DNA from: Escherichia phage vB_EcoP-101114BS3
DNA: 64,000 nt
Sequence record: MZ234015.1
Reading direction: 5' to 3' (one strand)
Shown: in pieces, positions 44,025 to 44,837 of the stretch
Numbering within the stretch: the stretch's first letter is position 1
Layout: each line of letters opens with the position of its first letter
Notes under the pieces: model-generated
The model's input: the letters and a program-made list of their open reading frames with translations, nothing else
Databases searched by the model: none
What the model was told of the DNA's origin: nothing
Translations under genes and position numbers: made by a program

Positions 44025-44234
44025 TTAACTGAAGATACGCAAGGCCACATCATGACCAATATGACCGGGAACTTTATGCTGCTCTATTTTCAAGCAGCGC
44101 TTACAGATACGAGATACACGAGACTCTTTTCTCTCTACTGGAGTGTCTTTAGCGTGAGTGATGTGTAGGTTTTCAGTGATCACCCACTCGTGTTTACATC
44201 CAGAATCTTCGGGCTTTTTCTTACGAAAGAACAT
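44025..44234 (-). CDS. Small zinc-ribbon protein (tandem array member)
   Basis: CKHEW...CKRCLK; internal ATG at 44234 taken as start to avoid overlap with the next gene. Confidence 0.45.
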   Translation of the reverse strand: MFFRKKKPEDSGCKHEWVITENLHITHAKDTPVERKESRVSRICKRCLKIEQHKVPGHIGHDVALRIFS

Positions 44235-44242
44235 AACACCTC

Positions 44243-44407
44243 TTAGATCAGATCTGTTTTCTTGTGCAGACCACACACTTTACAGCGAGAGTAGATACGC
44301 AACCCTTGTCGCTCTCTGTCAGTAAGTTTATTTGTGATCGTCAGTTCATAAGTATGAAGATCTTCCCACTCATGGAAATGAAATAGACGTTTGAACCATT
44401 TGATCAT
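44243..44407 (-). CDS. Unlisted small zinc-ribbon protein (54 aa), paralog of 44417-44578
   Basis: Translation MIKWFKRLFHFHEWEDLHTYELTITNKLTDRERQGLRIYSRCKVCGLHKKTDLI closely matches the neighbour's MIKWLKRVFHCHDW...CKVCGD. Confidence 0.5.
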   Translation of the reverse strand: MIKWFKRLFHFHEWEDLHTYELTITNKLTDRERQGLRIYSRCKVCGLHKKTDLI

Positions 44408-44416
44408 AATGATTCC

Positions 44417-44578
44417 TTAGATTACATCACGATGACTAATATCACCACACACCTTACACTGAATAATGTAACGTGTGCCCTTGTCATTGTTCCCATCTGA
44501 ATCCGTATAGACCAGAGGACGGGTGTTAATAATCTTCCAATCATGACAATGGAAGACACGCTTTAGCCACTTAATCAT
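44417..44578 (-). CDS. Small zinc-ribbon protein (tandem array member)
   Basis: MIKWLKRVFHCHDW...CKVCGD; start taken at the ATG matching the paralog (the ORF track extends to 44602). Confidence 0.5.
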   Translation of the reverse strand: MIKWLKRVFHCHDWKIINTRPLVYTDSDGNNDKGTRYIIQCKVCGDISHRDVI

Positions 44579-44579
44579 A

Positions 44580-44837
44580 TTAAGCACACGCCGGTAATTC
44601 AATTAACTGAGGAGTACGACAAGGGCCATCCTCATACACACCTACCAGTGTTGGCATGTAAGGCCCAGCGCACTGGTATTCATCGAACAGTTCATTGTAA
44701 GTAGGCTTCCACTTCCAAGCCCACACATAACCCATTCGATCAATGGCAATGTAACGAGTGTTCAGAGGAACCTGCATCATCACATCACCAACTGCTATTA
44801 CTTTCGTAATAACTGCTGCTCGGAAGTTTGTCTTCAT
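44580..44837 (-). CDS. Hypothetical protein
   Basis: 85-aa ORF. Confidence 0.45.
   Translation of the reverse strand: MKTNFRAAVITKVIAVGDVMMQVPLNTRYIAIDRMGYVWAWKWKPTYNELFDEYQCAGPYMPTLVGVYEDGPCRTPQLIELPACA

Follow-up and report, generated by a model that had tools for sequence, protein, structure and literature searches.

Whether three short open reading frames packed beside a tRNA gene of Escherichia phage vB_EcoP-101114BS3 (MZ234015.1) are genuine genes, whether they descend from one ancestor and what kind of proteins they would encode are the questions raised by the locus described here, which is part of a window of 64,000 nucleotides. The frames, subsequently called gene A (44417–44578; 53 aa from its ATG), gene B (44243–44407; 54 aa) and gene C (44025–44234; 69 aa from its ATG), are all located on the minus strand. 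Three adjacent small frames had been recognized at this place by a first-pass annotation, and indeed all three are present in the ORF listing. The 1.1-kb region around the array is 100% identical to the corresponding region of Escherichia phage vB_EcoP-101114UKE3 (MZ234017/NC_070982), a 75.7-kb phiEco32-like podovirus of the genus Suseptimavirus, subfamily Gordonclarkvirinae, and many other relatives match it at 85–97% identity. In MZ234017, the three genes are labelled as hypothetical proteins, namely 101114UKE3_110 (A), 101114UKE3_109 (B) and 101114UKE3_108 (C). Gene B, which had been put forward as an overlooked gene, has thus already been annotated; its absence from the ORF list underlying the first-pass annotation is probably due to a length cut-off of 60 aa, which A and C pass because they had been extended upstream, A to a TTG at 44602 (61 aa) and C to a GTG at 44276 (83 aa). 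Judged by the conserved N-termini of the orthologs (M[IF]KW in the orthologs of A), the ATGs are the true starts, and the predicted start of A is the ATG at 44578 and not the TTG at 44602.

The array is tightly packed, with Shine-Dalgarno sites or stop–start coupling. The stop codon of the preceding gene (44580–44837, minus strand) lies 1 nt before the ATG of A. A gap of 9 nt between A and B holds a Shine-Dalgarno-like AAGGA (44414–44418, minus strand), which is located 6 nt 5′ of the ATG of B and overlaps the stop codon of A, and a gap of 8 nt between B and C holds the Shine-Dalgarno sequence GAGGTG (44237–44242, minus strand), 2 nt 5′ of the ATG of C. A tRNA-Arg gene with the anticodon TCT (43941–44016, minus strand; called by ARAGORN and by the Rfam tRNA model with 70.8 bits, E 3e-15) starts with its 5′ end 8 nt past the stop codon of C on the same strand and is consequently downstream in the sense of transcription. 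The array had been described as lying directly downstream of the tRNA; the adjacency stands, but the direction applies to plus-strand coordinates only and is reversed in transcription. As no terminator-like site was found on the minus strand between 45661 and 43071, A, B, C and the tRNA-Arg are probably co-transcribed, and the tRNA is presumably excised from the same early transcript as C. A second tRNA considered for the 139-nt spacer after the tRNA-Arg was called neither by ARAGORN nor by Rfam, and the spacer has a folding z-score of −0.84. Equally, a sigma-70 promoter-like site before A (44602–44574), the −10 element of which overlaps the ATG of A, is attributed to chance, with the promoter scan performing no better than chance overall (7 sites found versus 13.4 expected).

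Position and strand of the three genes agree with the leftward gene cluster in the right arm of phiEco32-like genomes, which represents the early expression class transcribed by the host sigma-70 RNA polymerase (PMC8948821). In phage SU10, the early genes comprise CDS 69–125 (PMC4281155), a range that includes SU10_0105, the SU10 ortholog of an array gene, and in phage YF01 the early genes gp82–122 are located at the far right end of the genome (PMC9965538). Synteny with SU10 and YF01, together with the temporal classes of phiEco32 that the papers on these phages cite, suggests that A, B and C are expressed early.

The array was compared in 13 Gordonclarkvirinae genomes, and selection on each gene was measured over 11–13 related phages. 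Orthologs are intact wherever present in the 13 phages, B in 11 of them, and the residues considered as putative metal ligands never change. Pooled pN/pS values of 0.36, 0.28 and 0.11 were obtained for A, B and C, respectively, and the third codon position has the highest number of variable sites in all three genes (positions 1/2/3: 25/17/42 in A, 12/6/15 in B and 8/4/31 in C). The conservation in related phages, on which the first-pass annotation had made its reading depend, is hence borne out by this comparison. As judged from this comparison, A, B and C are genuine, conserved protein-coding genes under purifying selection.

At the same time, the composition of the array varies. The complete layout A-B-C is present in 101114UKE3, CHD5UKE1, Bas91, MLP3, SGF2, EcoN5 and 1-6bf and, with a 48-aa variant of A, in ECBP2. 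In EK010 and PAS59, A is replaced by A′, the phiEco32-type allele with 53–55% identity to A (A′-B-C), phiEco32 itself carries A′ only, SU7 has B-C and NJ01 has A-C. The first slot can thereby be occupied by three ‘alleles’ (A, A′ and the ECBP2 type) that share 46–75% identity. In Bas91, CHD5UKE1, 1-6bf and ECBP2, C is separated from the tRNA by an insertion, either an HNH homing endonuclease or a different ORF. A tblastn search with A identified 132 places in 99 phage records, which indicates that roughly one third of the records hold two copies. C is found at at least 90% identity in 47 records and at 40–50% identity in rV5-like myoviruses such as CR3, CR8, CR9 and PBES02, with homologs in the Vequintavirinae such as CR3 gp051; scans of IMG/VR for further homologs recovered NJ01 and ECBP2 again and nothing else. 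The cassette is accessory and recombinogenic. Variation within a gene is equally uneven. The two allele groups of B differ almost solely in residues 18–34, the predicted beta1–beta2 hairpin, where pN/pS between the groups amounts to 0.61–1.00 versus 0.09–0.29 in the rest of the gene for the same pairs. The hairpin is relaxed or diversifying, and relaxed constraint explains these pN/pS values equally well; positive selection was considered and set aside, as pN/pS reaches at most 1.0 with small counts.

What the genes might encode is suggested by two conserved knuckles which together supply four Cys/His ligands in each of the three proteins, the putative ligands being H10/H12/C41/C44 in A, H10/H12/C42/C45 in B and C13/H15/C44/C47 in C; in the family of C, His53 and His58 are also invariant. 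The AlphaFold2 model of A, derived from a 31-sequence alignment (pLDDT 84.3), consists of a helix (residues 3–8) followed by three strands (14–25, 31–41 and 47–52). In this model, the H-x-H knuckle precedes strand 1 and the C-x-x-C knuckle falls between the second and the third strand, an arrangement like that of a zinc ribbon. The model of C (pLDDT 66.7) has strands at residues 17–20, 37–44 and 50–56 and a helix at 61–68. Based on the residue conservation and the predicted folds, A, B and C probably bind zinc. The original reading of the proteins as zinc ribbons agrees with the invariant His/Cys ligands of diverse homologs and with the model of A, and it was the ligand labels that had to be revised. 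A Cys4 site does not apply, as A contains three Cys residues including the non-conserved C11, B contains two and C three, and two CxxC knuckles are absent; in place of Cys2His2, the putative sites are to be described as His2Cys2 for A and B and as Cys3His for C, in a predicted zinc ribbon and not a classical C2H2 finger.

Comparison with known zinc-binding proteins supports this distinction. The classical C2H2 finger possesses two His and two Cys residues as do A and B, but in A and B the order is reversed, with the His pair first and the Cys pair last at a spacing of about 28 residues, and the fold predicted for A is all-beta, without the recognition helix of the beta-beta-alpha finger and without His ligands on a helix; consistently, Pfam zf-C2H2 does not match A, B or C. 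The top Foldseek matches of the A model in the PDB are E. coli NrdR (probability 0.96–0.99; 24–29% identity over 41 columns), the N-terminal zinc ribbon of which (9gex, 9fzf and 7p37) represents the nearest solved structure. NrdR, however, combines its zinc ribbon with an ATP-cone in about 150 aa, whereas A, B and C comprise 53–69 aa without a further domain, and NrdR did not appear as a sequence match in the profile search of the PDB. The ribbons of TFIIS and aIF2-beta are of the Cys4 type, from which the A/B family is set apart by its His-x-His-x-Trp first knuckle. Among BFVD models, the neighbours of A are small uncharacterised proteins of very diverse phages, several of them labelled as aIF2, TFIIS-type, LEF5_C or C2H2. 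Such small uncharacterised phage zinc ribbons, including PHROGs 8294, 13426, 7696 and 3036 and the BFVD neighbours, share size, predicted fold and a setting among small genes with the proteins considered here; Pfam has no entry for any of these families. A functional analogy, and not more than an analogy, is offered by Com of phage Mu, a basic 62-aa Cys4 zinc-finger translational activator of mom that acts by RNA binding; it resembles A, B and C as a very small, basic, (as predicted for the latter) zinc-binding phage protein, but differs in its Cys4 site and gave neither a sequence nor a structural match in the searches made.

A and B are clear paralogs, as had been proposed, with 41% identity (E 1e-13) and assignment of both to phrog_8294 (A: E 8.8e-25, residues 1–53; B: E 1.7e-17, residues 1–54; profile positions 1–56 of 56 in both cases). 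A profile built from 31 homologs of A and B and searched against 1.84 billion cluster representatives retrieved 1,189 clusters (defined at 50% identity) at E ≤ 1e-3, of which 55 reach E ≤ 1e-10, and nearly all of the best 150 matches listed are stand-alone proteins of 47–70 aa. The members that can be assigned to a named phage derive from Pseudomonas Bruynoghevirus phages, Pseudomonas phage ventosus and Synechococcus phage B3; the rest are metagenomic sequences, and a look-up of 10 cluster representatives returned only metagenomic entries designated ‘hypothetical protein’. Across 136 diverse members, His12, Cys41 and Cys44 are conserved to 100% and Gly45 to 99%; 92% have His and 5% have Cys at position 10, 88% have Trp and 10% have Tyr at position 14, and Gly34 and Tyr37 are retained in 85% and 79%, respectively. 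In the Bruynoghevirus members, position 10 is occupied by Gly, but a Cys is present four residues to its N-terminal side. In a metagenomic protein of 182 aa, P0087, three such domains are fused via Pro-rich linkers, with the first knuckles CxH, HxH and, as read directly from the sequence, CPPH (C-x-x-H), and this mixture of knuckle types shows that Cys and His are interchangeable at the first ligand position. The proteins are basic, with pI values of 8.96 (A), 9.39 (B) and 9.60 (C) and a median of 9.1 in the A/B family, 86% of which exceed pI 8.

The family is not covered by curated domain collections. Pfam and NCBIfam were scanned with A, B, C and a fourth ORF discussed below, and Pfam also with six distant homologs and the 136 family representatives; no family was assigned, and the matches were confined to sub-threshold noise (PHD_4, CPxCG_zf and DUF951). 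A possible identity with DUF1660 was likewise not borne out. When all PDB sequences were searched with a profile, E 0.01 was the best value reached, and the matches were limited to generic CxxCG knuckles (aIF2-beta, S14 and rubredoxin). No recurrent partner gene was found near distant members (ventosus, PaeP_Ls, FJK, Synechococcus phage B3 and two metagenomic contigs); in some cases, a ligase for DNA or RNA or a helicase is encoded nearby. A search of the literature found no experimental study of family members, and a function in transcription or host takeover, as brought up by the first-pass annotation for small phage proteins of this kind, is to be read as a conjecture. In phage LUZ24, gp12 contains a degenerate N-terminal remnant of the A/B domain, fused and without the CxxC knuckle. 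A screen of 13 early ORFan genes of LUZ24 identified four growth-inhibitory proteins, gp12 not being among the four (PMC4635203), which is uninformative on the function of the family, as gp12 is degenerate and may have been outside the 13 genes.

Taken together, we consider it likely, on the grounds of sequence comparison and predicted structure, that A, B and C are genuine genes of the early leftward cluster, each encoding a stand-alone basic mini-protein (pI 9.0–9.6) that would fold into a short N-terminal segment followed by three beta-strands around a single metal site, presumably occupied by Zn(II). Two knuckles would form this site, [His/Cys]-x-His with a Trp after it towards the N-terminus and Cys-x-x-Cys-Gly towards the C-terminus. 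A and B may have arisen by tandem duplication within the large phage family phrog_8294, and C, which belongs to a second family, phrog_13426, that is also found in rV5-like myoviruses, would be either a very distant relative of A and B or an independent zinc ribbon placed alongside by recombination. The proteins would most probably act early in infection as zinc-stabilised binding modules with a nucleic acid or a host protein as target, and the variable beta1–beta2 hairpin could provide the surface that determines specificity. A binding role is favoured over catalysis because 53–69 residues leave no room for a catalytic site. Equally, since their number ranges from one to three in related phages, the modules would be accessory and at least partly redundant with each other.

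Several other readings have been weighed against this proposal. That the ORFs are chance or decaying frames without function may be brought up in view of their very short length, the absence of a Pfam or NCBIfam match and their dispensability in some relatives, but is scarcely credible and already contradicted by the conservation data, namely by pN/pS values of 0.11–0.36, ligand residues that are invariant over 136 divergent homologs, the 1,189 homologous clusters and the presence of Shine-Dalgarno sites. A role linked to the tRNA, in which A, B and C act on the processing, protection or use of tRNA-Arg(UCU), would explain the conserved place upstream of this gene. In every tRNA-bearing Gordonclarkvirinae locus examined, the array indeed ends beside the tRNA-Arg, either at a gap of 8–10 nt or with the HNH endonuclease or one extra ORF in between, and the basic nature of the A/B-family proteins is compatible with such a role. 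Adjacency within one virus subfamily is, however, adequately explained by inherited gene order, and no tRNA is annotated within the flanking ~1.5–4 kb in ventosus, Bruynoghevirus, Synechococcus phage B3 and the metagenomic contigs, so that a tRNA-linked role appears very improbable. More weight is to be given to a role as inhibitors, in which each protein neutralises a host defence or another host protein, with copy number, hairpin alleles and horizontal spread reflecting different hosts. Presence/absence polymorphism together with the three alleles of slot 1, the contrast in pN/pS between hairpin and scaffold, the occurrence of the family of C in phage groups as unrelated as the Gordonclarkvirinae and the Vequintavirinae and the placement of the array in the early region all fit such inhibitors. 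Still, no homolog among known anti-defence proteins occurred in the matches obtained, the pN/pS of the hairpin does not exceed 1, and binding of nucleic acid would account for the strongly basic charge at least equally well; inhibition of host defence is consequently regarded as unlikely compared with the more general proposal of basic zinc-ribbon binding modules.

A different question, one of ancestry and not of function, is whether C is unrelated to A and B, in which case the array would consist of a duplicated pair and an independent small zinc-binding neighbour. The first-pass annotation had interpreted the region as an array of three paralogs, of which the A/B pair holds, but the tie to C is weak and C belongs to a different PHROG (phrog_13426; E 2e-37, residues 2–69, profile positions 3–74 of 78). 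No link of C to A or B was obtained with phmmer, hhalign gave a probability of 7% (E 0.005), the phyletic spread differs in that rV5-like myoviruses carry C only, and the C-terminal helix and the invariant H53 and H58 of C are missing from A and B. On the other hand, pairwise BLASTP of C against A and B gave E values of 0.005 and 0.001, each in a single comparison, and when a deep HMM of the A/B family was run against about 1,300 ORFs, the ORFs of the C family were the best non-family matches (E 2.5e-4 to 1e-3; C itself about 1e-3). A, B and C furthermore share [C/H]-x-H-[D/E]-W, about 28 residues and C-[K/R]-x-C in the same register, with the motif elements, among them the Trp that follows the His, in identical order and at identical spacing, and the strand order predicted by AlphaFold2 for C is that of A. 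Nor does the Cys in the first knuckle of C separate it from the A/B family, which includes CxH variants and, in the fused P0087, a mixture of CxH and HxH knuckles. With these data, independence of C is a serious possibility to which we assign somewhat less than an even chance; homology of C to A and B is plausible but unproven, and the region is best described as a duplicated pair with a possibly related third gene.

Small zinc-binding proteins are frequent among the early proteins of phages, and in belonging to two PHROG families of the general kind of small stand-alone phage zinc ribbons, A, B and C constitute a finding that is real but ordinary and leaves current concepts unchanged. If the inference on the metal site holds, three early genes of phiEco32-like phages so far called ‘hypothetical’ receive a structural label, the His2Cys2 or Cys3His zinc ribbon. 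Of value for annotation, a large family of phage mini-proteins that is absent from curated domain databases is defined by the signature HxHxW...CxxCG. Furthermore, the array represents a dispensable, polymorphic cassette of early genes that is open to cheap experiments. In a far-reaching extension, which we hold to be quite doubtful, the A/B family might constitute a widespread class of His2Cys2 mini-proteins present in multiple copies, in tandem or fused, in lytic phages, with hairpins directed at differing host targets such as defence systems or components of the transcription or translation machinery; if true, this would amount to a new modular set of tools for taking over the host or countering its defences.

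Finally, the motif is rare in the window. The regular expression [CH]xHx[WYF]..CxxC matches just five of the 572 window ORFs of at least 30 aa, and the clustering of motif-bearing ORFs in the array can therefore not be ascribed to chance. Besides A, B and C, the matches are an ORF at 32911–33225, which we take to be a chance match, and a fourth small gene at 54454–54618 on the plus strand (54 aa; annotated as 101114UKE3_003) with the motif CQHEY...CADCGK, which is also recovered by the HMM of the A/B family (E 0.007). This fourth gene, a possible distant relative outside the tandem array as far as its sequence indicates, matches phrog_7696 with E 1e-11 and phrog_3036 with E 0.004, two profiles that are weakly touched by A and B as well.

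The junction between gene C (44234-44025, minus strand) and the tRNA-Arg(TCT) gene (44016-43941, minus strand), which in the window leaves only 8 nt between the C stop codon and the tRNA, is an insertion hotspot in the following relatives. An HNH homing endonuclease gene is inserted between C and tRNA-Arg in the related phages Bas91 (locus L010, 1007-1429), CHD5UKE1 (locus L005, about 2389-2811) and 1-6bf (locus L021, 65-505), with the assignment of the insert to phrog_14913 tested on the 1-6bf copy. In Bas91, the insert is annotated as 'homing endonuclease', and its gene and the tRNA, as annotated, overlap at the 5' end of the latter. 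In ECBP2, this junction is occupied instead by an open reading frame of another kind (89 aa, phrog_23590).

On the other side of tRNA-Arg, an unannotated minus-strand spacer of 139 nt (43802-43940) separates the tRNA from the next gene and is, with 95-99% identity across 29 Kuravirus-like phage records, more conserved than the adjoining small open reading frames. The spacer terminates in a tRNA-like 3' half, consisting of a T-arm (CTGGTTCGATTCCAG) followed by ATAGTCC and A-CCA, and a possible 5' acceptor, GGGCTAG, is located near 43934. Neither ARAGORN nor Rfam called a tRNA in the spacer, and its folding z-score is only -0.84. The spacer may represent a tRNA-like element, degenerate or of unusual form, or a processing signal.

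Besides the predicted zinc ribbon, the alignment of the C family (A5; window 44025-44234) shows invariant histidines at two more positions, H53 and H58, which lie in the motif E-x-H-x-V-x-G-H, as well as a C-terminal helix that is conserved; a single zinc site with four ligands would require none of these. Distant from the array, a fourth small gene of 54 aa, 101114UKE3_003 (54454-54618, plus strand; MWKLKMIIRQIKCQHEYY...WRCADCGKV), has the CxH...CxxCG motif in common with the array genes and matches phrog_7696 (E 1e-11) and phrog_3036 (E 0.004). As A (44578-44417) and B (44407-44243) also match phrog_7696 and phrog_3036 weakly, a loose superfamily is suggested.

Similarity to the A/B family is also seen at the N-terminus (MDLGNLWCLLGVHRYKIL...) of the 219 aa gp12 of Pseudomonas phage LUZ24 (locus L025, 4164-4823), which is without the CxxC knuckle and whose reading frame extends into downstream sequence. 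An intact 55-aa gene is present in the related Bruynogheviruses FJK (gp12) and PaeP_Ls, and the form of gp12 in LUZ24 probably reflects either a fusion by frameshift or an error in sequencing.

With respect to MZ234017, the GenBank record of vB_EcoP-101114UKE3, the window is offset by 21,547 around 44 kb and runs beyond the right end of that record on into its left end, where position 309 corresponds to window 54454 and not to 54509. From this discrepancy of approximately 55 bp and the continuation past the record end, it follows that the window derives from a genome version that is permuted or wrapped, or that the terminal repeat has been collapsed.
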